A stretch of DNA of 64,000 bases from a virus (IMGVR_UViG_3300033064_001806:46364-110363), one strand, 5' to 3'; positions 14,593 to 60,245 are shown, counted from the stretch's first letter. Translations and numbers: made by a program. Notes: a model not told the origin generated them from the letters alone.

Positions 14593-17292
14593 ATGAGAAG
14601 AAACATTACATACTTAAATGGTGTTACTGTTCAACAAGAAGATTTAGTACAAGATAAAAATGGTGCTATTATTTGGAATGGGATTGAATACGGTAATCCT
14701 GTTTTCTCTGGTATGCAAGCACTCAATGGAAATGGAGATATTGTAGATGTTTATAATATAACTTTATCTTTCTGTGAAAATACAAGATGGAAAGAAGTTG
14801 ATAGAGAATTTACCAAAGATGTTTTGAAATATAGACCAGTTGGATTTTATAAATATAGATTAAAATTTACATACGATAGAGAAACTGCAAGAATACGCGG
14901 CACTTCTCAAAATGTAATAGTTGAAGATTTCACAAAAGAAACTTCAAAAATATATAAAATCATGATAATAGATAACTATCGTCAATTACCGTTGGAAGAA
15001 GGAGTTCATTATACTATTGCACCAAATGGTTATGTTTGGTTTTTAGGTACTTGGCCATATCCTGAATTGAAAATAATGATTGATTGGCTTGATACCACTA
15101 CAAACGAAACAAAGACCACAGAATATATAACCAATACGATAATAGATAATGGTTATAGTGGAGCAGCAGAAAAAAGAAGTAATGTGTTTACTATTACACA
15201 AAGTGGACAATCCGTTCTGTTTAGTGAGAACTTAAATTTTGTTGCAAGTCTTTATTCAACTCCTGGTATAAATTCAATAATTGCATCCAATCCACTTGGT
15301 ATGTGGAGAGAACCACTTATATACACTATAAATGGTGGTGAGTGTTATGTGGAAGTGGGTATTGATGGTTCATTAAAATATTTAGATTCCAATAAAATAG
15401 AAACAACAGCAGAAGAAATACGGAAAAAAAGTTTATATCGTAATCCATTTGGCACTGGATTAGATTTAACACACAAGAGTGTAAGGGAATTTGAAACTGG
15501 TGAAAACATTTCTGGTAAACCTGCAATTGGCTTATTTCAGATAGTAGAGCCGTACATTCCAGGATTAAATTTTAATATTAAAAACAAGAATTTAGCAGCA
15601 ACATCTGGCATAAGAACAGTTGATGTACAACCAAAAGGTCTTGCTTTCAGAACATATTTTCCAATACCAGTAAATACACCAGACGCACCACTTCAAGTTG
15701 GTATGAGAATGTTCGTAGATAATAGAAGGATAGAAGCTGTTCCATATAGAAGGTGCTTTGAAGGACTTAGAACTGAGTATAGTTTGAATGAAGAATTCAT
15801 TGTTTATTTTGAAAAGGAAGAGCCTTGTTTTTCTGACTCAGCAGGAGCACCTGCAATGCAATTTTCTTCTAGTATTGAATTAGAAGAAGGTGTAGTTATT
15901 GATTGGGAAGGGCAAACAGTCAACAAAGAGTTACCAGATTGTGAATGTTTACGAGTTAGAGTTATAAGAGAACCATATGAAGAGCAAAGAACAGACTGTG
16001 GATGTAGACAAGTAACACGTTCTGACATTTATGAAATTTGTCCAGAATCAACACCACCTGCTATTTATGCTGATTATGAATCAAGAATAAGAACAGATGG
16101 TTCTACTATTTTTACAGTTCCACCAACTGGACTTACTCCGATAGTTTCAAGAGTAGAAAGAATTGAAAAATGTAAAGATAAACCATTGTTTGAAAGAACG
16201 GATTTTACTTACCATAAAATTCCAGATAGTGATATTATAATTGGAAACATACAAAGTGTAATCGGTGGAATGTTTAGTGCAGAAGAATCAGTTGATTGCT
16301 ATGTTACTAATTCAATTCAAACTGGTTCCAATGATTATTATTATAATATTACTGGCTGTAATACGTGTGGTAGTAGTTCTTATTTTACCGTTTCTTACGG
16401 TCATTCCGAAGGTTCTGGCTCAACATATGATTCACAATATGAATATAAATCACCAACAAAAGTAATATACAGTAAGTATAGATTAACGGCACTTGAATCA
16501 CCAGAAACAAATTTTAGTTTTTATTATACAGGAAGTATAGAAACACCAAAGGATATTTATAGTATAAATTTTTATCGTGAATCATACGGTGATAGAATAG
16601 ATCCAGGTAATTTTGAAATATCATTACAAGAACTAAATGGAACTGCTTATCCAAATATGTATTATACTGGTAGTAATGTTCAACCAAGTTCTTCAAATAA
16701 GATTATAAGTTTAGTAGATAATTCAGAATATATAAATGAATCAAATTGCGAAGAAGATCCGTATGCTTCCTATGATTTAGTAAGTGGTTCATTGATTCGT
16801 GGAATTTACAATACAGGTACAGGTAGTATTACTACAAATACACAATACACAACATACGGTAAAGTTTATCCAACCCTTGGTTTAATTGTATTAAATGGTA
16901 ACAGATTGAATGGAGAAGTATCATTCAATAGTGTGAGTGGTAGTAACATAGATGGCGATAATTCATTAAAGATATTTACCGCAATAAGTGGTGCTGCTTC
17001 GCTTGGTTATTCAATAAGAGCTAGAAAAGTAAAAGAACGAGGTGTATCACATTATATAGTTAGAGTACCTGCATCAGAAGCAACCTATACAAATAACCCA
17101 AGTGCCATAAATTCAATTGGTAGATTAAAATACGATTGTATGTCTGAGCAACCAATAACGTATGTTACAACCGTTGGTTTATATAATGATGATAAAGATT
17201 TAATAGCAGTTGCTAAATTTAATAAGCCTATAAAGAAAGAACACGATGATGATTTATTTATAAAAATAAAGATGGCTAAGCAAGATATATAA
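14593..17292 (+). CDS. large virion structural protein (baseplate/tail-associated)
   Basis: 899 aa, beta-rich; C-terminal 'TYVTTVGLYNDDKDLIAVAK' resembles tail-collar/baseplate attachment domains. Confidence 0.55.
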   Translation: MRRNITYLNGVTVQQEDLVQDKNGAIIWNGIEYGNPVFSGMQALNGNGDIVDVYNITLSFCENTRWKEVDREFTKDVLKYRPVGFYKYRLKFTYDRETARIRGTSQNVIVEDFTKETSKIYKIMIIDNYRQLPLEEGVHYTIAPNGYVWFLGTWPYPELKIMIDWLDTTTNETKTTEYITNTIIDNGYSGAAEKRSNVFTITQSGQSVLFSENLNFVASLYSTPGINSIIASNPLGMWREPLIYTINGGECYVEVGIDGSLKYLDSNKIETTAEEIRKKSLYRNPFGTGLDLTHKSVREFETGENISGKPAIGLFQIVEPYIPGLNFNIKNKNLAATSGIRTVDVQPKGLAFRTYFPIPVNTPDAPLQVGMRMFVDNRRIEAVPYRRCFEGLRTEYSLNEEFIVYFEKEEPCFSDSAGAPAMQFSSSIELEEGVVIDWEGQTVNKELPDCECLRVRVIREPYEEQRTDCGCRQVTRSDIYEICPESTPPAIYADYESRIRTDGSTIFTVPPTGLTPIVSRVERIEKCKDKPLFERTDFTYHKIPDSDIIIGNIQSVIGGMFSAEESVDCYVTNSIQTGSNDYYYNITGCNTCGSSSYFTVSYGHSEGSGSTYDSQYEYKSPTKVIYSKYRLTALESPETNFSFYYTGSIETPKDIYSINFYRESYGDRIDPGNFEISLQELNGTAYPNMYYTGSNVQPSSSNKIISLVDNSEYINESNCEEDPYASYDLVSGSLIRGIYNTGTGSITTNTQYTTYGKVYPTLGLIVLNGNRLNGEVSFNSVSGSNIDGDNSLKIFTAISGAASLGYSIRARKVKERGVSHYIVRVPASEATYTNNPSAINSIGRLKYDCMSEQPITYVTTVGLYNDDKDLIAVAKFNKPIKKEHDDDLFIKIKMAKQDI

Positions 17293-17395: not shown

Positions 17396-17653
17396 ATGAT
17401 TACCATTAAACATTACACAGCCTCTTGGTGTATGCCATGTAAACAACTTAAACCCATTATGAGTGAAATCTTACTTAAACGTCCAAATGTCAATTATAAA
17501 CTTATTGATGTGGACAATAATCCAGATGAAGCATCGATGCATGGTGTTCGTGGAGTTCCTACTGTAATATTTATGAAAGATGGGGTTGAAGTAAATAGAA
17601 TTATTGGTTTGGTTTCTAAAACAAATTACGAAATGGCAATTGATAATTTATAA
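17396..17653 (+). CDS. thioredoxin
   Basis: 'WCMPCK' CxxC, 'VRGVPT'; ATG 17396 after AAGGA. Confidence 0.92.
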   Translation: MITIKHYTASWCMPCKQLKPIMSEILLKRPNVNYKLIDVDNNPDEASMHGVRGVPTVIFMKDGVEVNRIIGLVSKTNYEMAIDNL

Positions 17654-17662
17654 TGGTGATAT

Positions 17663-18361
17663 ATGACAGTTATAGAAGCGGTTTCTCCCGGTGACGCTTG
17701 GGTAAAAGTTTCTAAGCATTTGTTAGAAAAAGGGGAAAAAGTCGGTGAATTAATTGAAGAATTAAATGTAATGATGGAAATTACTCAATTTGAAAGTGAT
17801 GATTGGTTTGATTCACACTTCAGAGAAATAATGGGTGATGATAGAATTGATTTTGCTTCTTCGGTTACTTTCGTAGAACCTAAACATAAAAAACCAATTA
17901 ACGATTTCTTTCAAGTAGAAGAAGGATTAGAATATCAGTTCATTAAAGACCATTGGCATCAGTCCTATTGGGGAAGAATGATTAGTTGGCAAGGTACGTT
18001 TAATCAAGTTGAAAACGTTATTAAGATTTTGAAACAAGGTAAAGCAGTTAAACGTTGTGAGTTAATTATATTTGACCCATCACGTGATTCACGCAATCCG
18101 TATTCTCAACCTTGTATGTTAATGATTGACTTGAAGCCACGGAATGGTAAGTTGTATTTAACTTCTGTTTTACGTTCCAATAGAGTTTCTAAAAGTGGTT
18201 ACGCTGATTATTCTGCTTTAGTTAGTATGGGTAAGTTTTTAGCAAAAGAAAGTGATTTGGAATTAGGAAAGGTTAGTGTATTAGCATGTTCCTGCCACAT
18301 CGGTAAGATGAACAATGAACTTAAAAAAACAAAAGAATTATTAAACATACTCAATAAATAA
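17663..18361 (+). CDS. atypical thymidylate synthase / dCMP hydroxymethylase-family protein
   Basis: 'SYWGRM', 'NQVENVI', catalytic 'QPC', 'LRSNRVSKSGYAD' (Asp at the E. coli Asn177 position), 'SCHI'. Confidence 0.75.
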   Translation: MTVIEAVSPGDAWVKVSKHLLEKGEKVGELIEELNVMMEITQFESDDWFDSHFREIMGDDRIDFASSVTFVEPKHKKPINDFFQVEEGLEYQFIKDHWHQSYWGRMISWQGTFNQVENVIKILKQGKAVKRCELIIFDPSRDSRNPYSQPCMLMIDLKPRNGKLYLTSVLRSNRVSKSGYADYSALVSMGKFLAKESDLELGKVSVLACSCHIGKMNNELKKTKELLNILNK

Positions 18362-18362
18362 T

Positions 18363-19868
18363 ATGTGCGGTATAATAGCAACCGTCGGTTATACTAAAAC
18401 TGACGTTGATAATATGTTGGAAACCATCGCTCACCGTGGTAAAGATAACCGTGGTATAAAAGAATTTTCTTGGGGCGATAGAAAAGTTATACTTGGACAT
18501 AATCGTCTTGCCATTAACGATACTTCTGCCGCAGGCAATCAACCGATGGAATGGGAAGGTATTCACTTAGTAGTTAATGGCGAAATATGGAATTATCCTG
18601 AACTAAGAAAAGAATACGAAGAAAGGGGATATAAGTTTAAATCAAATTCAGATTCAGAACTTATACTGTTTGTGTACAAAGAACAAGAATTGAAAAGACT
18701 TAACGGTATGTTTTCTTTTGTTATTTGGGATAACGGAAAGCTAATTCTTTCACGTGATTGGGTTGGTAAGTTACCACTCTATATTTTTAACAATAACACT
18801 TACATTATTGCAAGTGAAATAAAATCTATTGTTAAACAATTACCGAACGCTGACATTAAGTTTGTACCGAAAAATTCTTTGATTGAAATTGATCTGAGTA
18901 CCGATAAAATAATAGTTCATAAAGATTACTATTTTAACTTTTCAAACGAAACAACTTCACCCGAAACACATGAAGAATGCAGTACAACAACGTACAATCT
19001 ACTGGAGAACGCGGTAAGTAAAAGATTGTTATCTGATGTACCTATTGCAACTTCGTTGTCTGGTGGGATTGATTCCGCTGTTATAACGTATTTGTTATCT
19101 ACTAAAATACCAAACTTAAAAGCCTATACAATTGCTTTTGATGAAGATTCACCTGACTTGAAATATGCAAGAATAGTTGCAAAACATTTAGGTGTTCAAT
19201 TGGTTGAAGTTTTAGTTCCAAGAAACGTGGAACTCTTGAAGCAAAGATTTTTAGAATCAATACGAGTTATTGAATATCCATCTACAGTTCAAATGCAAGT
19301 TGGTATTCTACAATCGTTTATAGCAGAACAAATGGCAAAGGATGGAATAAAAGTTGCGTTTAGTGGTGAAGGTTCTGATGAAGCGTATGGTTCTTATGGA
19401 ATGATACGGATGTTTAGTAAGAAGCCAGACTGGTCGGATATTAGAAAGAAATTATTTGAAAAGCAATACTATGGTAATTTATTACGCGGTAATACTGTTT
19501 TCATGTATTACGGAACAATAGAATTACGTTGCCCGTTTTTCGATATTGATTTTTTAGATTACACTACTAACTTAACGAACGAATTTTTATCTGATAAATC
19601 TCAATGGAAACTTCCACTCGCAGATGCATTTAGACCGTACTTGCCTAAAGAAGTTATTGAACAAGAGAAACGTGCTTTTCAAAAAGGTACAAACTTCAAA
19701 GGATATATTGAAGATATAATTCTAAATGATAAAGAAATAAACTTTCGTAATAGAAAAAAGATGCTTCATGTAATTGGTGATAACTTTGAAAAGATTCATG
19801 GATTTTCACATAAGAAAATGAAGGGCGAACTTATTGGTAATAATAGTGGAATATTCAAATGGATTTAA
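18363..19868 (+). CDS. asparagine synthase-like glutamine amidotransferase (Ntn + PP-loop)
   Basis: N-terminal 'MCGI', 'HRGKD', 'HNRLAI', 'NGEIWN', 'SLSGGIDS', 'SGEGSDE'. Confidence 0.9.
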   Translation: MCGIIATVGYTKTDVDNMLETIAHRGKDNRGIKEFSWGDRKVILGHNRLAINDTSAAGNQPMEWEGIHLVVNGEIWNYPELRKEYEERGYKFKSNSDSELILFVYKEQELKRLNGMFSFVIWDNGKLILSRDWVGKLPLYIFNNNTYIIASEIKSIVKQLPNADIKFVPKNSLIEIDLSTDKIIVHKDYYFNFSNETTSPETHEECSTTTYNLLENAVSKRLLSDVPIATSLSGGIDSAVITYLLSTKIPNLKAYTIAFDEDSPDLKYARIVAKHLGVQLVEVLVPRNVELLKQRFLESIRVIEYPSTVQMQVGILQSFIAEQMAKDGIKVAFSGEGSDEAYGSYGMIRMFSKKPDWSDIRKKLFEKQYYGNLLRGNTVFMYYGTIELRCPFFDIDFLDYTTNLTNEFLSDKSQWKLPLADAFRPYLPKEVIEQEKRAFQKGTNFKGYIEDIILNDKEINFRNRKKMLHVIGDNFEKIHGFSHKKMKGELIGNNSGIFKWI

Positions 19869-20698
19869 TACAAACACCGATTGAGGAATACGAACTCAAA
19901 GGAAAGAAAGTTTGGGTTAAACGTGATGATTTAATAGGTGATGGGATAAATTATCCAAGGTGGGCAAAGATAGAAGGAATTAAACAAATTCTAAGAAGCC
20001 CTGCTGTTGATAAAAACAAACCATTAACTCACCTTTCAGTATACGGTAGTTGGACAGGCTGGGTTTTATCTAAACTTTGTAAAGAAGAAGGTATAGAATT
20101 TATTTCTTCTTATCCAGATACAAAGAAATTCCCACCGAGTTTAATTGAAAGAGTAATGGCAAATGGTGGAAAATTAAATCCACTTAAACCAAACATAATG
20201 GCAATACTAAACAATCGTGTAAAGAAACAGGCAATAGAAAACGGGTGGCAAATGTTACCATATGCGTTCAATCATCCAATGTACATTGCACACATGGGTA
20301 GTAGAATGAAAGAAGTATTGGCGGATAATGATTTTGACCACTTGGTTGTTTCAATGGGAAGTGGTGTAACGTGTTCTGGACTTATAAATTCATTCTTACA
20401 TTATACAGATTGGCGAGATGTTGTTAGTAACAGAAGGCAAGTTCATGGTATTACAATGTCATCGATAAAATCAACAAGAAAAATATTAGAACAAAATGGA
20501 GCAGGTGGTAATAATAATATTCACATTTATAAATCACCATTTGCTTTTGACGATATGATGTTGGATTATTCAGTACCGTTTGATTGTAATGAGTTTTGGG
20601 ATAAAAAAATGTGGTTCTGGTTAGAAGAAAACATTGGGAAATTAGACGGAAAAGTATTATTTTGGAATATTGGCGGTTCATATTTACAATCGATTTAA
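19859..20698 (+). CDS. PLP-dependent fold-type II enzyme (ACC deaminase / D-cysteine desulfhydrase-like)
   Basis: 'TPIE...VWVKRDDL...AK', phosphate loop 'SMGSGVT', C-terminal 'VLFWNIGG'. Confidence 0.75.
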   Translation: MDLIQTPIEEYELKGKKVWVKRDDLIGDGINYPRWAKIEGIKQILRSPAVDKNKPLTHLSVYGSWTGWVLSKLCKEEGIEFISSYPDTKKFPPSLIERVMANGGKLNPLKPNIMAILNNRVKKQAIENGWQMLPYAFNHPMYIAHMGSRMKEVLADNDFDHLVVSMGSGVTCSGLINSFLHYTDWRDVVSNRRQVHGITMSSIKSTRKILEQNGAGGNNNIHIYKSPFAFDDMMLDYSVPFDCNEFWDKKMWFWLEENIGKLDGKVLFWNIGGSYLQSI

Positions 20699-20714
20699 TA
20701 TAAATAAAGGAGTT

Positions 20715-21227
20715 ATGAAAATGGCACAGACGTGGCAAAGAAGATGGGATGAGAGTTTGGCTGAGGAATCATTTAAGAACAGATTAAATTTACCTATTAC
20801 GTATGTAAAGTTAAGTCCAGACGCAGTTAAACCAGAATACTCACAAGACGGTGATGCTGGTATGGATTTAACAGCGACTTCATTTAGAGTTACAGATACT
20901 TTTATGGAATTTGGAACTGGTATTGCGGTACAGATTCCAGCGAATCATGTTGGACTTTTATTTCCAAGAAGTTCAATTACAAAAGCAGCAGCAGGAGTTT
21001 CATTGAAAAATTCTGTTGGTGTTATAGATTCAAATTATCGTGGTGAAATCCTTGTGAGATTTGAATTGCCTTATTCAGGAGCGGTGGGTGGAACTATTCC
21101 AGTTGTTGGCGATAGAGTTGCACAATTGGTTATTATTCCGTATCCAAGAGTAAAATTCGTAGAAGTAGAGAAACTATCCGATACAAACCGTGGCCAAGGT
21201 GGGTTTGGTTCAACGGATAAACAATAA
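20715..21227 (+). CDS. dut: trimeric dUTPase
   Basis: 'DAGMDL', 'PRSS', 'GVIDSNYRGEI', 'RVAQL', 'RGQGGFGST'; start moved to ATG after AAGGAG. Confidence 0.95.
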   Translation: MKMAQTWQRRWDESLAEESFKNRLNLPITYVKLSPDAVKPEYSQDGDAGMDLTATSFRVTDTFMEFGTGIAVQIPANHVGLLFPRSSITKAAAGVSLKNSVGVIDSNYRGEILVRFELPYSGAVGGTIPVVGDRVAQLVIIPYPRVKFVEVEKLSDTNRGQGGFGSTDKQ

Positions 21228-21274: not shown

Positions 21275-21904
21275 ATGTCAAAACTAAGTAACATATTAAA
21301 AGAAAGTGGTTTATCGAGATTGGTTTACCACATGGAAATGCACGATTGCGGTACAATTACAGCCTTCCGCTCTAAAGAAGGGTGTGGTTTACCTGAAGAT
21401 TTACCGTATGCTCTACAAGATAACAAAAAAAGAAATGCACAATTAAAAGCAAAACTTGAAATGATGGGGTATGGAACAACAGCAGTTAAAGGTGCTTACA
21501 TTGAAAACTACGGAACACCTGAAGCAATTGAAGTACGTGAAGATGTTTTCTTTGTTGTGGATTTACAAGATAAAGGAAAACTTGAAGCAGATTTAAGAAG
21601 ATTGGGTGAAGAGTATATGCAAGATTCTATTTTGCTTATACCAAGGGGCGGTGATGGTTCTATTCTAATCGGTACAAACCAGTGTTCAGATTATCCAGGA
21701 TATGGAAGAACAATGCAATTCAATGATAGACAAATGGGCAAAGGTGGGCAATTCATGACAAAAGTAAAAGGCAGACCTTTTATATTTGAATCTGACTTGC
21801 TTGAACAAATTGGAAACCATAACTATTATAGTGTTGCAAACAACATGGGTAAGTGGGCAATGAAAACTATTGCAAATAAAAATTGGAAAGATATACAAAT
21901 TTAA
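21275..21904 (+). CDS. putative SAM lyase (T3 SAMase-like) with N-terminal leader
   Basis: Ordered motifs 'ITAFRS', 'NKKR', 'GAYIE', 'VRED', 'YMQDSIL' match T3 SAMase 'VSAFRS', 'NMSR', 'GCYRE', 'TEEK', 'WEQDCVL' as I recall them; leader MSKLSNILKE; ATATTTATA at 21233. Confidence 0.7.
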   Translation: MSKLSNILKESGLSRLVYHMEMHDCGTITAFRSKEGCGLPEDLPYALQDNKKRNAQLKAKLEMMGYGTTAVKGAYIENYGTPEAIEVREDVFFVVDLQDKGKLEADLRRLGEEYMQDSILLIPRGGDGSILIGTNQCSDYPGYGRTMQFNDRQMGKGGQFMTKVKGRPFIFESDLLEQIGNHNYYSVANNMGKWAMKTIANKNWKDIQI

Positions 21905-22528: not shown

Positions 22529-22630
22529 ATGTATTTAGATTACTTTGACAAGTTCAAAGGAATGAGTCCTTACCTTGCGATTGATAAAGCAAAATTTGCA
22601 GAACCAATGTGGATATTCAAAAAGGCATAA
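22529..22630 (+). pseudogene. 33-codon ORF, probable internally deleted methyltransferase remnant
   Basis: MYLDYFDKFKGMSPYLAIDKAKFAEPMWIFKKA; the C-end EPMWIFKK resembles the EPIFIFRKP / EPAFIFIKP ends of the two MTases. Confidence 0.45.
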
Positions 22631-25195: not shown

Positions 25196-25915
25196 ATGGA
25201 AAAATCAAAGTTATTAAACTTCATTAGTAAATATCACTTGGGTAAATTAGTTCAATCTGTTGCTTGGAATGCAAACGGTGGATTAGCAACTCGTTTTATT
25301 TCTGATGACAAATGCGTAGTAGGAGAAGTTAAGTTAAAAAGTTTCAGCGGTCAAGTAGCAAAGTTTGGTGTGTATGATACAAACTTACTTACAAGTCTTC
25401 TTGGTGTTCTTGGTAACACTATTGAATTTAAAATCAATGGTGCAGACGATAAAGCATTCGCTTTAACATTAAGTGATAAATCCACAACTGTTAATTATAT
25501 GTTAGCTGATTTGGCAGTTATTCCACCGGCACCGGAGTTGAAAGAACTTCCACCATTTGAATTAGAAATGTCAATTACAAAAGATTTTATTGATAAATTT
25601 ATCAAAGCTAAATCTGCTTTATCTGATATTGAGAAGTTTACTATTCTTAAAAACGGTAAGACTAATAAATGGCAAATTGTAATTGGTTATGCTAACATAA
25701 ACTCCAATAGAATTTCAATTGATATTGATTGTATTTGTGAACAAGATTTTGAACCAATTTCTTTTTCAGCAAAGTATTTCAAAGAAATTCTATCAGCAAA
25801 TAAAGATTTGAACGGTGGTTCAATGAAAGTTTCCTCACAAGGTTTAGCAAAAGTTGAATTTGATATTGACGATTTTGAATCAAGATATTTCTTAGTAAAA
25901 TTGGAAAACAATTAA
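25196..25915 (+). CDS. sliding clamp (gp45-like)
   Basis: 239 aa between PolB and clamp loader; 'FGVYD..LL..L', 'VSSQGLAKVEF...YFLV'. Confidence 0.75.
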   Translation: MEKSKLLNFISKYHLGKLVQSVAWNANGGLATRFISDDKCVVGEVKLKSFSGQVAKFGVYDTNLLTSLLGVLGNTIEFKINGADDKAFALTLSDKSTTVNYMLADLAVIPPAPELKELPPFELEMSITKDFIDKFIKAKSALSDIEKFTILKNGKTNKWQIVIGYANINSNRISIDIDCICEQDFEPISFSAKYFKEILSANKDLNGGSMKVSSQGLAKVEFDIDDFESRYFLVKLENN

Positions 25916-27549
25916 TGAAAAAGTATTTCTATGAAAAAAGTGATATTCTGTCCTGGCCATCAAACATAACGTATGGTGAACTGGTTACATTTGACGATAA
26001 CAGGTTTTATGAATGGGCAGAAGATTTACGAATGAGGATTCTAACTGATTGGGATAACAATGGGAAACCGCCAGTCGTTGGTAGAACTGAGGAAGAGATT
26101 AATCAATCATTCTCGAAACTCCGTCAGTTCAACGCTTCATCTATTTTTCATAGTGTGGAAGACGGCAATGACTCTGATATGATTGGAGTCATTGCTAATT
26201 TCACAAAAATTGGTTCTGCTGCAAATCAATTCTTTCCAACAATGCTAAAAACTAAAATTGCATCTGGCATGGGAAGTGATTCTGGTAAATCGATTTACGA
26301 TTATTTTACAGACTCTATGAAAGAAACATTTCATCATATTATGAAGAGAAGTGTTTACAACGATTCTATGTATTTGTACAGTAAGTCTTTATCTTCAAAT
26401 CAAGTAAAGAATCCTTACTTCAAAGAAGGTGAAACTCTTCGTGATTTCTTCATGGCGTATAAAAATGGTGATGGAAGATTCGATGGACAAGGTGTTCGTA
26501 TTTCTAAAATATCATGCACTCTACAAACTCAAAGTAAAAAATACAAAAAGTATTTAACTATAAAGGTAGATGAGATTAGACAGTTCTTAGCGGAAGGTTT
26601 GATTGATGACTTCATGTTATTTACTTTGGGTAGTCCAGCGGATTTAACTGATACATTTAATATACAAAAAGAAGGTTCGGAACCGAGGGCAAATGTTTAT
26701 ATTGTTCGTGTTTACGAAAAGAATATAAAACTATTTCCAAGTGCAATACAAGTATTTCGTATGTCATTTTGTCAACCGGCTGTAAACTTTCCACCTATGA
26801 CCGCAAAGTTTATTTATGAACACTTTACAAAACATATACCTGCAAGTGAAACAGTAACGGTATATGATCCAAGTTCTGGTTGGGGTGGAAGGATACTCGG
26901 TGCTATGTCTGTTGGCCGCCCAATGCATTATGTTGGAACAGACCCAAATACAGATAACTTTATTGATGAATTAGGAATAAGTCGTTATGAATACCTTGCA
27001 GACTTTTTTCTAAAATCAATAGGCGAGCGAGGCACAAATATATCTTCAAACTTCTTTGTTACAAATGAAAATCATACATACGAACTTTTTCAAGATGGTT
27101 CAGAAACAATTCAATTCAATCCTAAATTTCAAAAGTATAAAGGTAAGTTAGATTTTGTTTTTACTTCACCACCATACTTTAATAGAGAAATGTATTCCGA
27201 TGATGCAACTCAATCGTATAAAGCACATAGTGAGTATGCGGATTGGCGTGATAACTTTTTACGCCCAACATTAGAAACTGCGGTTGCTTATTTGAAATCA
27301 GACCGTTACCTTTGTTGGAATATAGCTGATATTAGAATTTCAACTAACAAAATAGTTCACCTTGAAAAAGATTCAATTGATATATTAGAATCATTGGGAA
27401 TGGAGTATGTAGGTAAATTTGGAATGGCAATGGGTAGAATGATTGGTAACTCTGACCAAGAAAAATTGGCTGAAAGAACTTCTAATAAAGTTTTTCATAA
27501 AGGTCAATGGTGGAAACAAGAACCTATTTTTATTTTCCGGAAACCATAA
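25915..27549 (+). CDS. amino-group (N4-C/N6-A) DNA methyltransferase
   Basis: 'AVNFPP..AK', motif I 'YDPSSGWGGR', 'GTDPN', motif IV 'FTSPPYF'. Confidence 0.8.
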   Translation: MKKYFYEKSDILSWPSNITYGELVTFDDNRFYEWAEDLRMRILTDWDNNGKPPVVGRTEEEINQSFSKLRQFNASSIFHSVEDGNDSDMIGVIANFTKIGSAANQFFPTMLKTKIASGMGSDSGKSIYDYFTDSMKETFHHIMKRSVYNDSMYLYSKSLSSNQVKNPYFKEGETLRDFFMAYKNGDGRFDGQGVRISKISCTLQTQSKKYKKYLTIKVDEIRQFLAEGLIDDFMLFTLGSPADLTDTFNIQKEGSEPRANVYIVRVYEKNIKLFPSAIQVFRMSFCQPAVNFPPMTAKFIYEHFTKHIPASETVTVYDPSSGWGGRILGAMSVGRPMHYVGTDPNTDNFIDELGISRYEYLADFFLKSIGERGTNISSNFFVTNENHTYELFQDGSETIQFNPKFQKYKGKLDFVFTSPPYFNREMYSDDATQSYKAHSEYADWRDNFLRPTLETAVAYLKSDRYLCWNIADIRISTNKIVHLEKDSIDILESLGMEYVGKFGMAMGRMIGNSDQEKLAERTSNKVFHKGQWWKQEPIFIFRKP

Positions 27550-27552
27550 TAT

Positions 27553-28632
27553 ATGAGACCTAACGGCGATAGTTTAAGTAAATTTTTTGATGTTGATCAG
27601 CTAGAAGTTCGTTTGTGGAAAGAAACAGGTGAATACTTTGCAGGTAAGAGAGAATTGGATGATACAATAGATTGTATCTTTCAGTATTACCGCAAACATG
27701 GTTATCCGTATATGAAAATCACCGAACAAGAAAAACATGAACACATGAGAAAACTTCAACAATTTAATTATGATTCTATTTTCAAAGACGGTGATATAAT
27801 TCAAACTATGAACGGACTTCGTTTGGCATGGTCTTACTTTCCACATGGAATGGAAATCAAGTGTGGTAATTCTAAAATGTCTCCTATGGATAATTTTTTA
27901 AATGACCAAACATTCAAAATGACTATTCGTAAATGTTTGAAGTGGTTGTGGAAACATTTGGGTGGTTCTTTTCAAGAGAATCGTCTTCGTCAATCACTTA
28001 AAATATATTCCGGTGTTCAAGGTGTTTCTAATTTCAGACCAACTGCTGCAGGTGCTATTTATAAAAGATTTGGTGGTGATGGTGTGATGTGGGATATGTC
28101 TTGTGGTTGGGGTGGTAGATTAGTCGGTGCACTTGCTTCACCGTATATCAAAACTTATATCGGAACAGAACCATCTACCAAAACATTTGAAGGTCTATGT
28201 AAACTTCGTGATGACTTTGCGTATCTTGGGAAAGATATTCAATTGAATATGATGGGTTCAGAAGATTATCTACCAGAAAAAGAAAGTTTAGATTTATGTT
28301 TCACTTCACCTCCGTATTTTGATACAGAAAAGTATGCAGATGAAGAAACTCAATCGTATAATAAGTTTTCAACTCGTGATACTTGGGGTTCTGGTTTCTT
28401 ACAAGAAACATTTAAGAATTGTTTTCATGGATTAAAACCGCATGGTTATATGTTGATAAACATTTCAAATACACCAAAGTATAAAGACTTGGAAGAAATG
28501 ACAATTCATTATGCAAAAGAAGTGGGTTTCATATATGAAGGTAAAATTAATCTAATTCTATCATCAGTTATGGGTGCTGGGTATAAAAGAGAACCTGCAT
28601 TTATTTTTATAAAACCCTTGGCAGTCTCATAA
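27553..28632 (+). CDS. amino-group (N4-C/N6-A) DNA methyltransferase
   Basis: 'SNFRPT', 'WDMSCGWGGR', 'GTEP', 'FTSPPYF'. Confidence 0.82.
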   Translation: MRPNGDSLSKFFDVDQLEVRLWKETGEYFAGKRELDDTIDCIFQYYRKHGYPYMKITEQEKHEHMRKLQQFNYDSIFKDGDIIQTMNGLRLAWSYFPHGMEIKCGNSKMSPMDNFLNDQTFKMTIRKCLKWLWKHLGGSFQENRLRQSLKIYSGVQGVSNFRPTAAGAIYKRFGGDGVMWDMSCGWGGRLVGALASPYIKTYIGTEPSTKTFEGLCKLRDDFAYLGKDIQLNMMGSEDYLPEKESLDLCFTSPPYFDTEKYADEETQSYNKFSTRDTWGSGFLQETFKNCFHGLKPHGYMLINISNTPKYKDLEEMTIHYAKEVGFIYEGKINLILSSVMGAGYKREPAFIFIKPLAVS

Positions 28633-30357: not shown

Positions 30358-30737
30358 GGAATAAAATGTCAATTAAAGAAATAGACTTAGGTAGAAAACA
30401 AAATAGTGTTGTTTCTGAAATGGAAGAAAAGTTTCCTACTATGACTAAAGAATTTAAACGTATTCAACAAGAACAGTACGAACTATTCTGTGCAAAACAA
30501 AAAAACTATGGTCCAGATAATATATCAATGGGTACAACATTAGAAAGAGAGGAAGACAGAAAACTTTCTTTACAAGGTTTATTCTTTCGTATTAACGATA
30601 AAATAAACAGATACAAACAAATGATTATGTTTGGTTCACAAGATGCAGTTGGTGAATCCTTATATGACACATTCAAAGATATTTCTGTTTATGGAATTAT
30701 CGCACAACTTGTTCAATCTGGTAAATGGGGGAAATAA
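30354..30737 (+). CDS. nucleotide modification associated domain protein (DUF1599/Nmad1-like, MazG-like fold)
   Basis: 'KQKNYG', 'RINDKINR', 'ESLYDTFKDISVYGII'. Confidence 0.7.
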   Translation: MRNKMSIKEIDLGRKQNSVVSEMEEKFPTMTKEFKRIQQEQYELFCAKQKNYGPDNISMGTTLEREEDRKLSLQGLFFRINDKINRYKQMIMFGSQDAVGESLYDTFKDISVYGIIAQLVQSGKWGK

Positions 30738-31894
30738 TGAGTACATATATATGGACTTCGGAATATGTAAGTGAAGGTCATCCTGATAAAATAGCTGACC
30801 AAATTTCAGATGCAATTCTTGATTGGTATTTACAAAGAGATCCAGACGCAAAGGTTGCGTGTGAGGTTATGGTAAAGGATAGTGATGTTTATGTTTCTGG
30901 TGAAATAAAATCAACGGTTGATAAAGATAAAAGAACTTTAGAATTATCACTAACTAGATTAATTAAAGGACTTATAAAAGACATTGGCTATACAATAGAA
31001 GAATCACCATTCTTCAATTCAGAGTATTGCCGTATTCACTTTAATATATCAACTCAATCATCAGAGATTAATCAAGCGGTTGATAAAGGTGATGTTGTTA
31101 CAGCAGGAGACCAAGGTATTATGTTTGGTTACGCTACTCGTGAAACTCCAACATATATGCCGATAGCAATTTACTTGGCTAAAAAACTAATTGACGTTGC
31201 AACAGATATTAGAAAAAAAGGTAGTAAATTAGGTCATGTACAGAAACTTCGTCCCGATATGAAGAGTCAAGTGTCTGTTACGTATAAAGATAATAAAGCA
31301 GTAGGTATTCATTCTGTTGTATTTTCAACTTGTCATTCTGAAATGATTTCACTTGAACAACTTAGAAAGTATTTCCATTCTGATATTTTACCAACGGTAT
31401 TAGAAAGTATTCCAGAAGAACTTGCGGAACTATTTACAGATAAAACTGTTTACCATATAAATCCAGCAGGTGAATGGAATGTTGGTGGTCCAGTTTCTGA
31501 TTGTGGATTAACAGGTAGAAAGATTGTAGTTGATCAATACGGTGCTGATTGTGAAATTGGCGGTGGCGCTTTCTCTGGCAAAGACCCAAGTAAAGTTGAT
31601 AGAAGTGCAGCGTATATGGCTCGTCATATCGCTATAACAACACTTCATGAAAATGAAGAAGCAAATAAAATTAAAGTTCAATTGGCATATGCAATCGGTG
31701 AAGAGTTTCCTGTTTCATATCGTATATTTGATCCAACAACTTGCAAAGAATATGGACTTGGTAAATTTACTCACGCTGATTTAACTCCAAGTAGAATCAT
31801 TGAAAGATTAAAATTAAAAACTCCTATTTATTTACAAACTGCCAAGTATGGTCATTTTGGAAATAAAGATTTAGAATGGGAGAAAATTGGATGA
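30737..31894 (+). CDS. metK: S-adenosylmethionine synthetase
   Basis: 'SEYVSEGHPDKIADQISDAILD', 'AGDQGIMFG', 'GLTGRK', 'GGGAFSGKDPSKVDRS', 'YGHFG'. Confidence 0.96.
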   Translation: MSTYIWTSEYVSEGHPDKIADQISDAILDWYLQRDPDAKVACEVMVKDSDVYVSGEIKSTVDKDKRTLELSLTRLIKGLIKDIGYTIEESPFFNSEYCRIHFNISTQSSEINQAVDKGDVVTAGDQGIMFGYATRETPTYMPIAIYLAKKLIDVATDIRKKGSKLGHVQKLRPDMKSQVSVTYKDNKAVGIHSVVFSTCHSEMISLEQLRKYFHSDILPTVLESIPEELAELFTDKTVYHINPAGEWNVGGPVSDCGLTGRKIVVDQYGADCEIGGGAFSGKDPSKVDRSAAYMARHIAITTLHENEEANKIKVQLAYAIGEEFPVSYRIFDPTTCKEYGLGKFTHADLTPSRIIERLKLKTPIYLQTAKYGHFGNKDLEWEKIG

Positions 31895-33555: not shown

Positions 33556-34986
33556 ATGGCAAAGAAAAAGATACTATTATTATCAGATGATTTAAGATTA
33601 ACATCTGGAATTGCAACTGTGTCTCGTGATTTAGTTCTCGGCACAGTAAGAGATTTTGATTGGGTGCAAGTTGGTGCAGCAATTAATCATCCAGATAAAG
33701 GTAAAATATTTGATTTATCACAAGATGCTAAAGAACGAAGCGGTGATGATACGGCAAATATAAAAATATATTGTAACGATGGATATGGTGATCCATTTCT
33801 TATTCGTAGAATAATGGATGCGGAAAAACCAGACGCTATATTACATTTTACAGACCCAAGATTTTGGGGATGGTTATATAACATGGAACATGAGATTCGT
33901 AAAAAAATGCCGTTGATGTATTTGAATATATGGGACGGTGCAGGATTGGTTGGTGATACAGCAACAGACCCTATGTGGAATAAAGAAGCGTATGCTAGTT
34001 GTGATTTATTACTGGCAATTTCAAAACAAACATACGGTATTAATTACAGAGTGTTGAAAAAATTCGGTGAAGAAGTTCCAAAGCATAGAATAACTTATAT
34101 TCCGCATGGAATAGATACTGATATATTTTATCCTATAAATGAAGCATCAACCGATAATCAATGGAATGAATTACAAGAAGAACGTAATAAACTTCGTAAT
34201 GGCAATGATGATAAGTTCGTTGTTATGTGGAACAACCGAAACATTCACCGTAAGCATCCAGGTGATGTTGTTCTTGCTTATAAACATTTCTGTCAACTTG
34301 TAGATAAAAACGGTGGGAATGCTGCAGAAGATTGTGTATTACTAATGCACACCCAACCCATGGATCCAAATGGAACAGACTTAGTTGCTTTAGTTGGTGA
34401 ACTTTGTGGTGAGTATACTGTTTTATTTGACGATAAAATAGTTCCATCTACAAAATTAAATGTTCTATATAATGCAGTTGATGTTGTTCTTAACATGGCT
34501 TCAAATGAAGGTTTTGGTTTAGGAACAGCAGAAGCACTTGCAGCAGGTACTCCGATTGTAGTAAACGTTACCGGTGGGTTACAAGACCAATGTGGTTTTA
34601 TAAATCCAACAACTGGTAAATACTTTACAGAAGATGATTATTTGAAAATACATACACTCCATAGAAAAGATGAATGGGGACATTTAGAACATGGTGAGTG
34701 GGTCAAACCAGTTTGGCCATCAAACATTTCATTACAAGGTTCAGTACCAACTCCTTATATTTTTGATGATAGAGCAGATTTTAGAGATATTGGAAAAGCG
34801 TTGTATGATTGGTACATAACTTCAAAGGAAGAAAGAACATTTGCAGGATTAAAGGGAAGAGAATTTATTATGAATGTAGAAGTTGGCATGTCAAGAAATA
34901 ATATGTGTGAGCGAATTTCAACAAGTATCAACGATACATTTGAAAATTTCGTACCACGAAAAAGTTTTGAATTACATTTAGTGTGA
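33556..34986 (+). CDS. glycosyltransferase (GT-B, GT4-like)
   Basis: 'LLSDD...SG', 'IPHGID', 'NRN..RK', 'SNEGFGLGTAEALAAGTP'. Confidence 0.88.
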   Translation: MAKKKILLLSDDLRLTSGIATVSRDLVLGTVRDFDWVQVGAAINHPDKGKIFDLSQDAKERSGDDTANIKIYCNDGYGDPFLIRRIMDAEKPDAILHFTDPRFWGWLYNMEHEIRKKMPLMYLNIWDGAGLVGDTATDPMWNKEAYASCDLLLAISKQTYGINYRVLKKFGEEVPKHRITYIPHGIDTDIFYPINEASTDNQWNELQEERNKLRNGNDDKFVVMWNNRNIHRKHPGDVVLAYKHFCQLVDKNGGNAAEDCVLLMHTQPMDPNGTDLVALVGELCGEYTVLFDDKIVPSTKLNVLYNAVDVVLNMASNEGFGLGTAEALAAGTPIVVNVTGGLQDQCGFINPTTGKYFTEDDYLKIHTLHRKDEWGHLEHGEWVKPVWPSNISLQGSVPTPYIFDDRADFRDIGKALYDWYITSKEERTFAGLKGREFIMNVEVGMSRNNMCERISTSINDTFENFVPRKSFELHLV

Positions 34987-34993
34987 GGAAATA

Positions 34994-36295
34994 ATGAGTT
35001 ATAGACCAAAATTAGCTTTTTGTGGACCAGTTACAACTATGAGTGGTTATGGTTCTCATGCGAGAGATTTACTTTTATCACTTATAGAAATGGATAAGTT
35101 TGATATACAAGTAATATCAATAAATTGGGGCGATACACCCATGGATGTATTGGATTCAGATAATGTAGATATGAAAAAAATTAAAGATTTAATAATTCCA
35201 GGTTTACAATCACAGCCAGACATTTGGATGCAATGCACTATTCCAAATGAATTCCAAGCAGTTGGTAAATATAATGTTGGAATTACAGCAGGTGTGGAGA
35301 CTGATGCTTGTTCTCCCGAGTGGGTTGATGGTTGTAATCGTATGAACTTGATTATTGTTCCATCCAAACACGCTAAGTGGGTATTTGATAATACTCAATA
35401 CGATAAAATGGATAAACAAACAAATCAGAAAATAGGAAGTCTTAAAATAACTACACCAGTTGAAGTCTTACATGAAGGTGTTAGAACTGATATATACAAC
35501 AAGGATAATACTTTAGAAAAAAATATAACAGAAGTATTAGATTTGATTCCAAACAATTTCGTATATTTGTTTGTTGGACATTGGCTTAAAGGAGACTTCG
35601 GTCAAGATAGAAAAGATATTTCTGGACTGATTTACACTTTCTGCGAAACATTTGGTGATACAGTAAATCCACCAGCACTTCTTTTGAAATGCACAAGTGG
35701 AACATTCTCTGTCTCGGATAGAAGTAGAGTAATGGATAAAATAAATCTTATTAAGCGAATGAGTAAAAAGAAAAATCTACCAGAGATTTATTTACTTCAC
35801 GGTGAATTAACTGATAATGAAATGAATTCTCTTTACAATCATAAGAAAGTAAAGACGATGGTTTCATTTACGAAGGGTGAAGGGTATGGTAGACCAATTG
35901 CAGAATTTATGGCGTCTGGTAAACCTATTATCGTTTCGGGTTGGAGTGGACACATGGATTTTATAAATGAGAAATCTCATATTCCATTAAAAGGCACTCT
36001 ATTAGAAGTTCATCCAAGTGCGGTTTGGGATACAATTATAAATAAAGGAACACGCTGGTTTACAGTAGATTATCAATCTGCAGCAGAAACTATGAATAAA
36101 GTTCATAAAAATTATAATAAATACTTACAAAATTCTAAAATAGGTATTCGTGAACTAAAAAGTATTTGGTCATATAGTTCTATGTGTAGAAAATTTGAAA
36201 CTATGTTAGATGAAAAACTACCAAAGTTTGCAGACAGAATTGCTCTTAGTTTACCTAAACTTAAAAAAATTAGTAGTCCAGGGGAAACTAAATGA
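34994..36295 (+). CDS. glycosyltransferase (GT-B, GT4-like)
   Basis: 'SGYG', 'DRK', 'KGEGYGRPIAEFMASGKPII'. Confidence 0.88.
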   Translation: MSYRPKLAFCGPVTTMSGYGSHARDLLLSLIEMDKFDIQVISINWGDTPMDVLDSDNVDMKKIKDLIIPGLQSQPDIWMQCTIPNEFQAVGKYNVGITAGVETDACSPEWVDGCNRMNLIIVPSKHAKWVFDNTQYDKMDKQTNQKIGSLKITTPVEVLHEGVRTDIYNKDNTLEKNITEVLDLIPNNFVYLFVGHWLKGDFGQDRKDISGLIYTFCETFGDTVNPPALLLKCTSGTFSVSDRSRVMDKINLIKRMSKKKNLPEIYLLHGELTDNEMNSLYNHKKVKTMVSFTKGEGYGRPIAEFMASGKPIIVSGWSGHMDFINEKSHIPLKGTLLEVHPSAVWDTIINKGTRWFTVDYQSAAETMNKVHKNYNKYLQNSKIGIRELKSIWSYSSMCRKFETMLDEKLPKFADRIALSLPKLKKISSPGETK

Positions 36296-36915
36296 TTTCG
36301 TACACTATTACTGCTTGTAATGAACACACTCAGTTAAATACTTTATTAAATTATCTTAGTTCAAGAATATCTAAAAATGATGAAATCGTGTTACAGATGG
36401 ATAGTTTATCTGTAACTAACGAAGTAATAGAAGTTGTTAACCAATGTAAAGGAAAGCTACAAAACTTAATCGTTGTTGAATTTCCATTAAACAATGACTT
36501 CTCTAGCTTCAAGAATAATTTGAAAAAGCATTGTACTAAAAAATGGATTTTCAATATTGATGCAGATGAAATACCAGCTGAAAATTTAATGGTAGATATA
36601 CATGAAATTCTAAACGAGAATCAAGAAGTTGATATGTTTTTAATTCCAAGATGGAATACTGTTGATGGTATAACTGAAGATCATATAAAGCAGTGGAACT
36701 GGAACTATGATAAAGAAGGTAGAGTTAATTGGCCAGATTTACAAACAAGAATTTATAAGAATAACGAATCTATTGTTTGGAAAAACAAAGTACATGAAAG
36801 GTTGAGTGGTTTTACTACGTATGCCGTTCTACCAGAAGAAATAGAATATTGTCTGTTCCATCCCAAAACGATAGAACGTCAAGAAAAACAAAATGAATTT
36901 TATAGTCAGATATAG
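36292..36915 (+). CDS. glycosyltransferase family 2
   Basis: 'ITACNE', 'WIFNIDADE', 'WPD.Q.R', 'VHE'. Confidence 0.85.
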   Translation: MISYTITACNEHTQLNTLLNYLSSRISKNDEIVLQMDSLSVTNEVIEVVNQCKGKLQNLIVVEFPLNNDFSSFKNNLKKHCTKKWIFNIDADEIPAENLMVDIHEILNENQEVDMFLIPRWNTVDGITEDHIKQWNWNYDKEGRVNWPDLQTRIYKNNESIVWKNKVHERLSGFTTYAVLPEEIEYCLFHPKTIERQEKQNEFYSQI

Positions 36916-36923
36916 GAATTGTT

Positions 36924-38108
36924 ATGAAAAAAATACCCTTATTCAAAGTATTCATGTCTGAAACTGCACCGAAGGCAGTTACAGAAGTTCTTACAAGTGG
37001 ATTCATCGGGCAAGGTCCAAAGGTAGAAGAGTTAGAACGTAATCTAACTTCTTACTTTGGAACTACATCGTCTCAAGTTTTAACCCTTAACTCAGCAACT
37101 TCAGCAGAACATTTAATTTATCACCTCCTCAAGAAGCCATCAAGACTTACAACAACATATGATGTGGGTGAATCTTGGTACGATTGGAGAGGCTTACAAG
37201 AAGGGGATGAAGTTCTAACAACACCACTAACTTGTACAGCTACAAATTGGCCAATATTAGCAAACGGTTTGAAAATTAAATGGGTTGATGTTGATCCAAG
37301 CACAATGAATATATCTTTAGAAGATTTGAAATTAAAGTTATCGGAAAAAACAAAGATTGTTGTTGTTGTTCATTGGGGTGGTTATCCTGTTGATTTGGTT
37401 GAACTTGAAAAAATTAGACGAGATTTTCATACTAAGTACGGTTTTCCATTTATGATAGTAGATGATTCCGCACACGCATTTGGTTCTAAGTTGGACAACA
37501 AATTAATTGGTACATTCGATACCATTTCAACTTTCTCAATGCAAGCGATTAAACACATAACTTCAATTGATGGTGGATTCTGGTTGTGTCCTTATAGCGA
37601 GTTAAACAAACGTGGTAAGCTACAAAGGTGGTATGGTATTGATAGAGAAGGATCAAGAGGAGATTTTAGATGTGAAAGTGATATAGAAGAGTGGGGATTT
37701 AAGTTTCACATGAATGATGTTTCTGCTGCGGTTGGTATAGAAAATCTAAAACACGCAAATGATATAATCAGAAAACATAGAGATAACGCTGAGTTTTATA
37801 ACAAAGAATTACAAAATATAAGTGGTGTAACACTATTAGAAAACTCTCCAAGAAAAAAATCTGCTTATTGGTTATATACAATGCGAGTAGAAAGGAGAGA
37901 CGAGTTTATGCGTTATATGAACAATTGTGGTATTGTTACAAGTAGAGTACATGAAAGAAACGATAAACATACTTGCGTTAAAGAATTCGTTACTGAATTA
38001 CCGAATATTGAAATGGTAACTAAAGATATGATATGCATTCCTGTTGGGTGGTGGGTTACAGAAGAGCAACGTGAATATATTGTTGATTGTATTAAGAGAG
38101 GTTGGTAA
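36924..38108 (+). CDS. DegT/DnrJ/EryC1/StrS sugar aminotransferase
   Basis: 'NSATSA', 'VHWGG', 'DDSAHAFG', 'FSMQAIKHITSIDGG', 'GFKFHM'. Confidence 0.92.
   Translation: MKKIPLFKVFMSETAPKAVTEVLTSGFIGQGPKVEELERNLTSYFGTTSSQVLTLNSATSAEHLIYHLLKKPSRLTTTYDVGESWYDWRGLQEGDEVLTTPLTCTATNWPILANGLKIKWVDVDPSTMNISLEDLKLKLSEKTKIVVVVHWGGYPVDLVELEKIRRDFHTKYGFPFMIVDDSAHAFGSKLDNKLIGTFDTISTFSMQAIKHITSIDGGFWLCPYSELNKRGKLQRWYGIDREGSRGDFRCESDIEEWGFKFHMNDVSAAVGIENLKHANDIIRKHRDNAEFYNKELQNISGVTLLENSPRKKSAYWLYTMRVERRDEFMRYMNNCGIVTSRVHERNDKHTCVKEFVTELPNIEMVTKDMICIPVGWWVTEEQREYIVDCIKRGW

Positions 38109-58616: not shown

Positions 58617-60245
<1,629 letters not shown>

Follow-up and report, generated by a model that had tools for sequence, protein, structure and literature searches.

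A conserved viral gene cassette joining a thymidylate-synthase-fold enzyme, an asparagine-synthetase-like amidotransferase and a pyridoxal-phosphate enzyme: a candidate route to an amide-bearing modified cytosine

A stretch of viral DNA of 64,000 nucleotides (IMGVR_UViG_3300033064_001806:46364-110363; the whole stretch is referred to as the window) was analyzed with respect to a group of genes at positions 17,396 to 21,227, which an initial annotation, made from the sequence alone, had read as an operon for DNA base modification. The window is the final 64 kb of a 110-kb IMG/VR viral record with a CheckV completeness of 62%. Its G+C content is approximately 32%, and all long open reading frames (ORFs) lie on the + strand. 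A block bounded by ribonucleotide reductase and polB contained the following genes, in this order, among them a thymidylate synthase (TS)-fold enzyme, a pyridoxal phosphate (PLP) enzyme and a protein related to S-adenosylmethionine (SAM) lyases:

17396-17653, + strand: thioredoxin (Pfam E 3e-15)
17663-18361, + strand: TS-fold enzyme (TS-like), 232 amino acids (aa) (Pfam PF00303, TIGR03283, AlphaFold2 model, Foldseek)
18363-19868, + strand: glutamine-dependent asparagine-synthetase-like amidotransferase (AsnB-like), 501 aa (Pfam GATase_7 and Asn_synthase)
19859-20698, + strand: fold-type II PLP enzyme, 279 aa (PHROG 7093, homology to M6 gp52)
about 20721-21227, + strand: trimeric-type dUTPase (Pfam PF00692, E 3e-16)
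21275-21904: SAM-lyase-like protein, 209 aa (S-AdoMet lyase family PF23780, E 1e-10)

Abutting or overlapping ends had been described for the TS-like, AsnB-like and PLP genes. We found that the AsnB-like gene starts 1 nucleotide (nt) past the TS-like stop codon, leaving a 1-nt gap, and that the PLP gene overlaps the AsnB-like gene by 10 nt. The family labels proposed for the cassette genes concurred with the assignments obtained from Pfam, PHROG and NCBIfam. A scan for promoters and terminators returned a number of sites no higher than chance, and no DNA nearly identical to the window was found in the phage collection searched.

Two IMG/VR scans anchored on the TS-like protein yielded 46 and 77 loci. 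The trio of TS-like, AsnB-like and PLP genes, for which a neighbourhood search in other phages had been suggested, was found together in more than 100 viral contigs, and its linkage persisted with polB identity down to approximately 55% and TS-like identity down to 41%. The companions were kept where polB was approximately 55% and the TS-like protein 41-53% identical, and in some lineages with polB only approximately 55% identical the TS-like protein was 75-81% identical. At every locus with enough flanking DNA, an AsnB-type gene or a gene for a smaller PP-loop-only protein lay near the TS-like gene, with the exception of L056, where neither was found; these two genes were joined by a PLP gene, by a radical-SAM gene or by the two together. 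The TS-like, AsnB-like and PLP genes are supported as one conserved unit. The cassette was abundant in aquatic viromes, where it was represented by hundreds of protein clusters and contigs of up to 289 kb.

Thioredoxin and dUTPase, between which the operon had been placed, were found to be neighbours of the cassette and not members of it. Thioredoxin lay upstream of the cassette in most lineages, yet it was also present in the cassette-less Microcystis phage Mel-JY01, and it accompanies ribonucleotide reductase. The dUTPase gene adjoined the cassette only in near-identical relatives, with no match within 8 kb in more distant loci, and dUTPase was rejected as a pathway member since this adjacency is not conserved.

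Radical-SAM proteins with class-B-like matches were added to the cassette or took the place of the PLP enzyme in five loci (radical-SAM cases: P0161; L074:4486-6891; L055:8902-10272; L090:2447-3868). Two gene fusions were observed, one joining the TS-like protein to a radical-SAM protein (P0161) and the other joining a radical-SAM protein to a methyltransferase-like protein of the SPPY type described below (L074). Among the loci analyzed, no fused form of the TS-like protein other than that with radical SAM was found. An apparent TS-AsnB fusion at L045:8001-10130 arose from a deletion that removed the C-terminal helix of the TS-like protein and the catalytic Cys of the glutaminase. Because the deletion takes out this cysteine, the joined gene was not counted as fusion evidence; it probably reflects damage to this copy or a fault in the assembly.

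A conserved fourth member had been missed initially. A protein resembling amino-methyltransferases, with the motifs SxGWGxR and F(T/S)SPPYF (SPPY protein), was a nearly constant fourth neighbour of the cassette, and its gene either lay upstream of the TS-like gene or separated the PLP gene from polB. Certain relatives among the jumbo phages had a 390-aa protein, resembling a P-loop ATPase plus a GNAT acetyltransferase, inserted between the SPPY and TS-like genes (L019:6766-7938). The window contained the following SPPY features:

22529-22627, + strand: remnant of a cassette-adjacent 410-aa SPPY gene (blastn and tblastn against relatives)
25915-27549, + strand: SPPY amino-methyltransferase-like protein, 544 aa (motifs SSGWGGR and FTSPPYF)
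27553-28632, + strand: second SPPY amino-methyltransferase-like paralogue, 359 aa (motifs SCGWGGR and FTSPPYF; Pfam N6_N4_Mtase, 30.9 bits)

In 98%-identical relatives, polB is preceded by a 410-aa SPPY gene, of which a clean, in-frame deletion of approximately 1.05 kb has left only a remnant in this record. The junction was located by blastn against the relatives L003 and L004 (window 22588 corresponds to L003 12926, and window 22582 to L003 13979). The remnant ORF has 32 codons, of which tblastn recovered only the first 24 (compare L003:12867-14021). The two paralogues lie directly 3' of polB (25915-28632), and in other lineages orthologues of the 544-aa protein, 44-48% identical, were encoded immediately upstream of the TS-like gene. 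The 544-aa protein (MT544) showed a weak match to Pfam N6_N4_Mtase, and its structural model had a predicted local distance difference test score (pLDDT) of 76, with the m2G10 methyltransferase Trm11 as the top Foldseek match.

A further scan, anchored on the PLP enzyme, revealed approximately 23 additional loci with a sister cassette, referred to as type B (L165, L170-L192; for example, L172:4539-9085 and L187:3568-6807). These loci combined an SPPY protein with a PLP enzyme (45-50% identical), an AsnB-like protein (32-35% identical) and a D-2-hydroxyacid-dehydrogenase-like protein of approximately 285 aa, and some of them belonged to the same lineage by polB and had this cassette at the identical site between thioredoxin and polB. 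The constant trio across both cassette types is thus the SPPY protein, the PLP enzyme and the amide-forming enzyme, and the fourth enzyme is exchangeable, being TS-like, a dehydrogenase or a radical-SAM protein. The nearest cultured phage was Mel-JY01 (L195, PP395634.1:64198-84738), with a polB identity of 61.7%. Mel-JY01 shares the gene order of thioredoxin, polB, clamp loader, SAM synthetase, PD-(D/E)XK nuclease and glycosyltransferases, and the TS-like, AsnB-like, PLP and SPPY genes were all absent from it together, which indicates that the module was gained or lost as a unit. Since glycosyltransferases are present in this cassette-free phage, those downstream of the module are independent of it.

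The TS-like protein matched the Pfam family Thymidylat_synt (PF00303) with 26.7 bits, marginally above the cut-off of 24.3, and its best full-length family match was TIGR03283, the model for short archaeal TS, with 73 bits over residues 7-215 against a cut-off of 174.55. The AlphaFold2 model (pLDDT 94.8) displayed the TS fold, and the top Foldseek matches were AfhB (9iqc/9iqu), MilA and ThyA, with template modelling (TM) scores of 0.6-0.7 and approximately 17% identity. The sequence contains QPC, LRSNRVSKSGYAD and CHIG, and the motif reading of the initial annotation was confirmed (PC, RSNR, GYAD and HIG). Gap-free HMMER alignments to MilA (RANDAFRGAVSD) and AfhB (RSQNCAVVMQLD) aligned Arg with E. 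coli position 169, Asp with position 177 and Gly with position 209. In the family alignment, the catalytic Cys151 (E. coli Cys146) was nearly invariant, Arg171 and Ser172 (E. coli Arg166-Ser167) were invariant, and conservation extended to a Tyr-Trp-Gly-Arg segment and to a Lys/Arg pair corresponding to Arg126'/127'. The retention of the phosphate-binding Lys/Arg pair, the Cys and Arg166/Ser167 points to a nucleoside 5'-monophosphate as the substrate.

A motif census was taken of TS-like sequences from viral contigs, 44 distinct variants in all. Asp occupied position 177 in every one of the 44; position 169 was Arg in 38 and Ala in the remaining 6, and never Asp or Asn; position 209 was Gly, or else Arg, His, Thr or Phe, and never Tyr. 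The TS-like family thus kept the catalytic Cys and Arg166-Ser167 of ThyA, and the 44 variants had none of its Asn177, Asp169 and Tyr209. In the family alignment, the position equivalent to L143 had Ser, Gly or another residue, never Asp or Glu, so that of the signature of the dCMP/CMP hydroxymethylases T4 gp42 and MilA only Asp177 was found, and both Asp169 and the acidic residue at the L143 position were missing. The signature of the 5-hydroxy-dCMP synthases differed as well (RSQN...D in AfhB versus RSNR...D here), as Asn169 occurred in none of the 44 variants. Distant TS homologues with Asp169 and Asn177 fell outside the TS-like clade. In published work, TS homologues that carry out new C5 chemistry on dCMP are recognizable by changes at positions 169 and 177 (PMC13326640). 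By these residues, the TS-like clade matches none of the described TS-homologue signatures. The invariant Asp177 supports the dCMP-type signature read earlier, and the residues at positions 169 and 209 support the lack of the usual folate contact (Asp169) and 3'-OH contact (Tyr209).

The TS-like protein was ruled out as the dTMP synthase of the phage, because complete relatives encode ThyA or ThyX in addition. Three of them (G001-G003) carried a canonical ThyA (300-316 bits) besides the TS-like gene, and a complete relative of 177 kb that is approximately 98% identical (G004) carried ThyX (158 bits) in a genome region missing from the present record.

The AsnB-like protein contained the Pfam domains GATase_7 (E 1e-32) and Asn_synthase (E 2e-42), arranged as an N-terminal Cys2 glutaminase followed by a synthetase domain with the PP-loop motif SGGIDS. 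All glutaminase and PP-loop residues of AsnB were retained (MCGI, HNRLAI, NGEIWN, SDSE, SGGIDS and SGEGSDE). The protein scored 251 bits against the AsnB model PRK09431, for which the cut-off is 499. In the alignment with E. coli AsnB (1ct9; E 1.7e-41), Arg387 was kept and Asn was found opposite Asp384, a residue that helps to bind aspartate. The closest homologue in the phage collection was gp124 of Streptomyces phage TurkishDelight (32% identity over the full length), whose gene is flanked by a CmoX homologue (37% identical to S-B43 CmoX, with the motif SPPC) and a CmoA homologue. The synthetase domain also matched S-B43 CmoY (E 5e-9), and in several lineages a PP-loop-only protein of 280-320 aa occupied the position of the AsnB-like gene; the one tested (L026) matched S-B43 CmoY with E 2e-11. 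S-B43 CmoY is an Asn-synthetase homologue that ligates glycine onto 5-carboxymethylcytosine in DNA (Nat Commun 2025, PMC12783734), and the cluster of CmoY homologues that bear a glutaminase is predicted to use ammonia and to form a primary amide (PMC12783734). These homologies support the placement of the AsnB-like protein with CmoY and the TurkishDelight homologue, among enzymes that would amidate a carboxyl group on a C5-modified cytosine, and they speak for the carboxylate-amidating role initially assigned to it.

The PLP enzyme scored 24.3 bits against the Pfam family PALP, under the cut-off of 35, and matched PHROG 7093 with E 4e-26 over residues 4-272. It was 29% identical to M6 gp52 over 96% of its length. 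In the family alignment, Lys37 was invariant and lay within a P-x-W-x-K motif, and a phosphate loop of sequence GSGVT was present; Lys37 adjoins the predicted PLP lysine of M6 gp52, K36, so that the protein has the PLP lysine and the PHROG 7093 membership of the fold-type II enzymes M6 gp52 and ViI gp226. M6 gp52 uses PLP to decarboxylate C-alpha-glycinylthymidine in DNA (NAR 2021, PMC8989533), and gp52 and ViI gp226 both decarboxylate thymidines bearing an amino acid in DNA (PMC8989533). The nearest characterized relatives of the PLP enzyme are decarboxylases and not enzymes of beta-replacement, which had been named initially for its fold.

We compared the cassette with the known pathways to which its members are related, using five genomes, this record (G000) and four complete relatives (G001-G004). 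The M6/ViI thymidine pathway consists of a dUMP hydroxymethylase, a 5-hydroxymethyldeoxyuridine (5-hmdU) DNA kinase, an amino-acid:DNA transferase, a radical-SAM isomerase and the PLP decarboxylase gp52/gp226 (PMC8989533). The two systems share a TS homologue, a fold-type II PLP enzyme homologous to gp52, radical-SAM proteins in some relatives and clustering in the replication region. Unlike M6/ViI, the cassette includes an additional amidotransferase, its TS homologue has the cytosine-type Asp177, and its radical-SAM enzyme is not similar to M6 gp53. Neither the 5-hmdU DNA kinase (PF18748) nor the amino-acid:DNA transferase (PF18724), downstream of which the M6/ViI PLP enzymes act, was found in the five genomes, and phmmer searches with M6 gp49-gp59 revealed a homologue of gp52 only, with no M6-type radical-SAM isomerase.

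The S-B43 pathway of CmoA, CmoX and CmoY resembles the cassette in that an enzyme of the Asn-synthetase family turns, or in the cassette would turn, the carboxyl group of a C5-modified cytosine into an amide, and sister cassettes even contain a CmoY-like PP-loop-only ligase. In contrast, the cassette has TS-fold, PLP and SPPY proteins in place of CmoA and the CmoX-type methyltransferase. CmoA (TIGR00740) and C5 DNA methyltransferases (PF00145) were not found in the five genomes, the 544-aa SPPY protein showed no similarity to CmoX, and the ligase gene, despite its homology to CmoY, does not lie beside CmoA and CmoX. A search for Tet/JBP dioxygenases gave no match, which carries little weight because the control genomes were unmatched too. 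The flavin-dependent 5-hydroxy-dCMP synthases HY126 AfhB (PDB 9iqc/9iqu), RB69 gp48 and DLP3 gp80 (NAR 2026, PMC13326640) form the third point of comparison. AfhB and MilA, the best structural and profile matches of the TS-like protein, share with it a short TS fold, Asp177 and an altered position 169, but identity is only approximately 17%, Arg or Ala replaces Asn169, and no dedicated cluster of DNA glycosyltransferases (arabinosyl or other) is linked to the cassette. The archaeal TS of TIGR03283 is similar in its compact length and provides the best full-length match, although the score is far under the cut-off. Full-text literature searches found the M6/ViI, RB69/DLP3 and S-B43 pathways and no description of the present gene combination, in line with the earlier remark that the pathway was not recognized as a characterized one.

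Starting from the observed gene linkage, homologies and active-site signatures, we consider it slightly better than an even chance that the three genes are central to a mobile module for DNA-base hypermodification, one that comprises four types of enzyme and forms an amide at C5 of cytosine. In this scheme, the TS-fold enzyme would bind a cytosine mononucleotide, most likely dCMP, and the conserved Cys would activate C5, giving a carbon substituent at C5 formed without the usual folate contacts and bearing, or later gaining, a carboxyl or amino-acid group. The AsnB-like enzyme would then adenylate the side-chain carboxyl and convert it with glutamine-derived ammonia into a primary amide, the same conversion that has been predicted, in the 5-carboxymethylcytosine pathway, for CmoY homologues with a glutaminase domain. 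The PLP enzyme could trim or build the alpha-amino-acid part of the side chain or act on the donor, the SPPY protein might modify an amino or amide nitrogen, and the end product would shield the phage DNA from host nucleases. The substrate, the order of the steps and the side-chain donor are those that we infer, as is the level, nucleotide or DNA, at which the second to fourth steps would occur. Because the gene combination was not described in the literature searched, the cassette probably yields a new amide-bearing modified cytosine. Of the overall pathway first proposed, the conserved unit stands, and the dCMP-type signature and the amidation suggested by homology are retained at the strength given above, and the chemistry put forward would be plausible; the role of the PLP enzyme needs revision, dUTPase is not a member, the SPPY protein had been missed, and the TS-like enzyme turned out to be exchangeable.

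Several observations weigh against this cytosine amide scheme. The AsnB-like protein scored 292 bits against the asparagine synthase model TIGR01536, above its cut-off of 267. The approximately 23 type B loci lack a TS-like gene and the trio persists in them; the replacement of this gene in the sister cassettes means that the TS-like protein is not indispensable to the trio and perhaps not a universal first step. In this record, moreover, the SPPY gene adjacent to the cassette is deleted. A dCTPase, a dNMP kinase and a dCMP deaminase were not found consistently in the complete relatives (MazG occurred only in G002, and dCMP deaminase only in G002 and G003), and the lack of a consistent dCTPase and dCMP deaminase leaves a complete nucleotide-level replacement of dC unsupported. 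Finally, amidation and decarboxylation are mutually exclusive fates of one carboxyl group, so the simple order of carboxylate, amide and decarboxylation fails as it stands; the PLP enzyme may catalyze a reaction other than decarboxylation or may have the donor molecule as its substrate.

Some of these points lend themselves to another explanation, in which the constant trio modifies an exocyclic amino group in DNA, for example as an amidated N-carboxyalkyl group comparable to the N6-carbamoylmethyladenine of Mu Mom, and the TS-like, dehydrogenase or radical-SAM protein is an interchangeable accessory that supplies the donor or makes a second change. The SPPY, PLP and AsnB genes are indeed kept when a dehydrogenase-like gene substitutes for the TS-like gene, the SPPY motif and the Trm11-like fold are features usual in methyltransferases that target exocyclic amino groups, the phage encodes a SAM synthetase, and CmoX and CmoY provide a real precedent for a SAM-analogue transferase working with an Asn-synthetase-like ligase (PMC12783734). 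We nevertheless regard this explanation as unlikely. A CmoA homologue was not found in the five genomes, the other three genes are intact here beside the deleted SPPY gene, and the TS-like protein remained 75-81% identical at a polB identity of approximately 55%, with a complete catalytic and nucleotide-binding signature. The AsnB and PLP proteins of the TS-containing cassette (type A) and of type B are, in addition, only 32-50% identical, so the products of the two types may differ.

The TS-like protein could also be a plain dCMP hydroxymethylase or hydroxylase, its 5-hydroxymethyl- or 5-hydroxy-dCMP serving as a handle for glycosylation by the enzymes at 33556-36915, with the AsnB-like and PLP proteins serving a separate purpose. 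This would fit Asp177, the closest solved structures (the 5-hydroxy-dCMP synthase AfhB and the CMP hydroxymethylase MilA) and the genes for two GT4 and one GT2 glycosyltransferases and a DegT aminotransferase 12-17 kb downstream. It appears quite improbable, however, as position 169 is Arg or Ala and neither the Asn of the 5-hydroxy-dCMP synthases (D169N) nor the Asp169 of the hydroxymethylases, and the L143-equivalent residue is Ser or Gly and not Asp or Glu. Mel-JY01 has glycosyltransferase genes at the corresponding place without a TS-like gene, and the linkage and fusions involving AsnB, PLP, radical-SAM and SPPY proteins would be left unexplained. Still less probable, in our judgement, is a set of auxiliary metabolic genes that supplies asparagine or another amino acid alongside a nucleotide-salvage enzyme, with no DNA modification. 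The TIGR01536 score, the intact glutaminase and PP-loop residues, the 2-hydroxyacid dehydrogenase of type B, which is typical of amino-acid pathways, and the asparagine synthases annotated in other phages would agree with such a role. Against it, the cassette invariably lay in the replication and nucleotide-metabolism block beside polB, the closest studied phage relative of each member acts on DNA bases, small CmoY-like ligases substitute for AsnB in sister phages, SPPY methyltransferase-like genes co-vary with the cassette, and E. coli Asp384, which helps to bind aspartate, aligns with Asn.

A more far-reaching form of the C5-cytosine amide scheme, which we put forward as a tentative and rather doubtful proposal, is that the TS fold forms a C-C bond at C5 of dCMP independently of folate, with a donor new to this fold, and that amidation and trimming then lead to an undescribed amide cytosine in large aquatic phages. 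The donor could be glyoxylate or another 2-oxo acid, PLP-bound aminoacrylate or a carboxyalkyl group derived from SAM, and 5-carbamoylalkyl- or 5-(amino-carbamoyl-ethyl)-cytosine would be examples of candidate bases. If this were true, the swappable first-step enzymes (TS-like, 2-hydroxyacid dehydrogenase and radical SAM) would give rise to a family of related bases.

Other genes of the window were also recorded. An 899-aa ORF without a family match lies in the replication block (14593-17292) and is approximately 30% identical to its counterpart in L003, in contrast to approximately 98% elsewhere; the ORF resembles a variable gene that has been exchanged, perhaps in connection with host range. 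The SAM synthetase MetK (30725-31894) occurs alongside the S-AdoMet lyase-family protein at 21275-21904, a pair that suggests heavy or unusual use of SAM. A sugar cluster at 33556-38108 contains two GT4 glycosyltransferases, one GT2 glycosyltransferase and a DegT/DnrJ aminotransferase, and a phage-encoded GroEL chaperonin was identified at 58620-60245 (PHROG 5725, E 9e-181).

The cassette falls within phage pyrimidine hypermodification, which is a known kind of system, and the combination itself is new. Because it draws on three enzyme families from three known pathways and the initiating enzymes of all three are absent, a base not yet catalogued is to be expected, and the cultured phage Mel-JY01 offers a natural negative control for the cassette. 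Phage hypermodifications have been a source of chemistry and tools, including hydroxymethylases, glucosyltransferases, amino-acid:DNA transferases and carboxymethyltransferases, and they determine the success of restriction and CRISPR defences. As the cassette is common in aquatic viromes, studies that sequence or clone such phages or define their host range may be affected, and the exchangeable fourth enzyme suggests that base chemistry diversifies in these phages by the swapping of parts.

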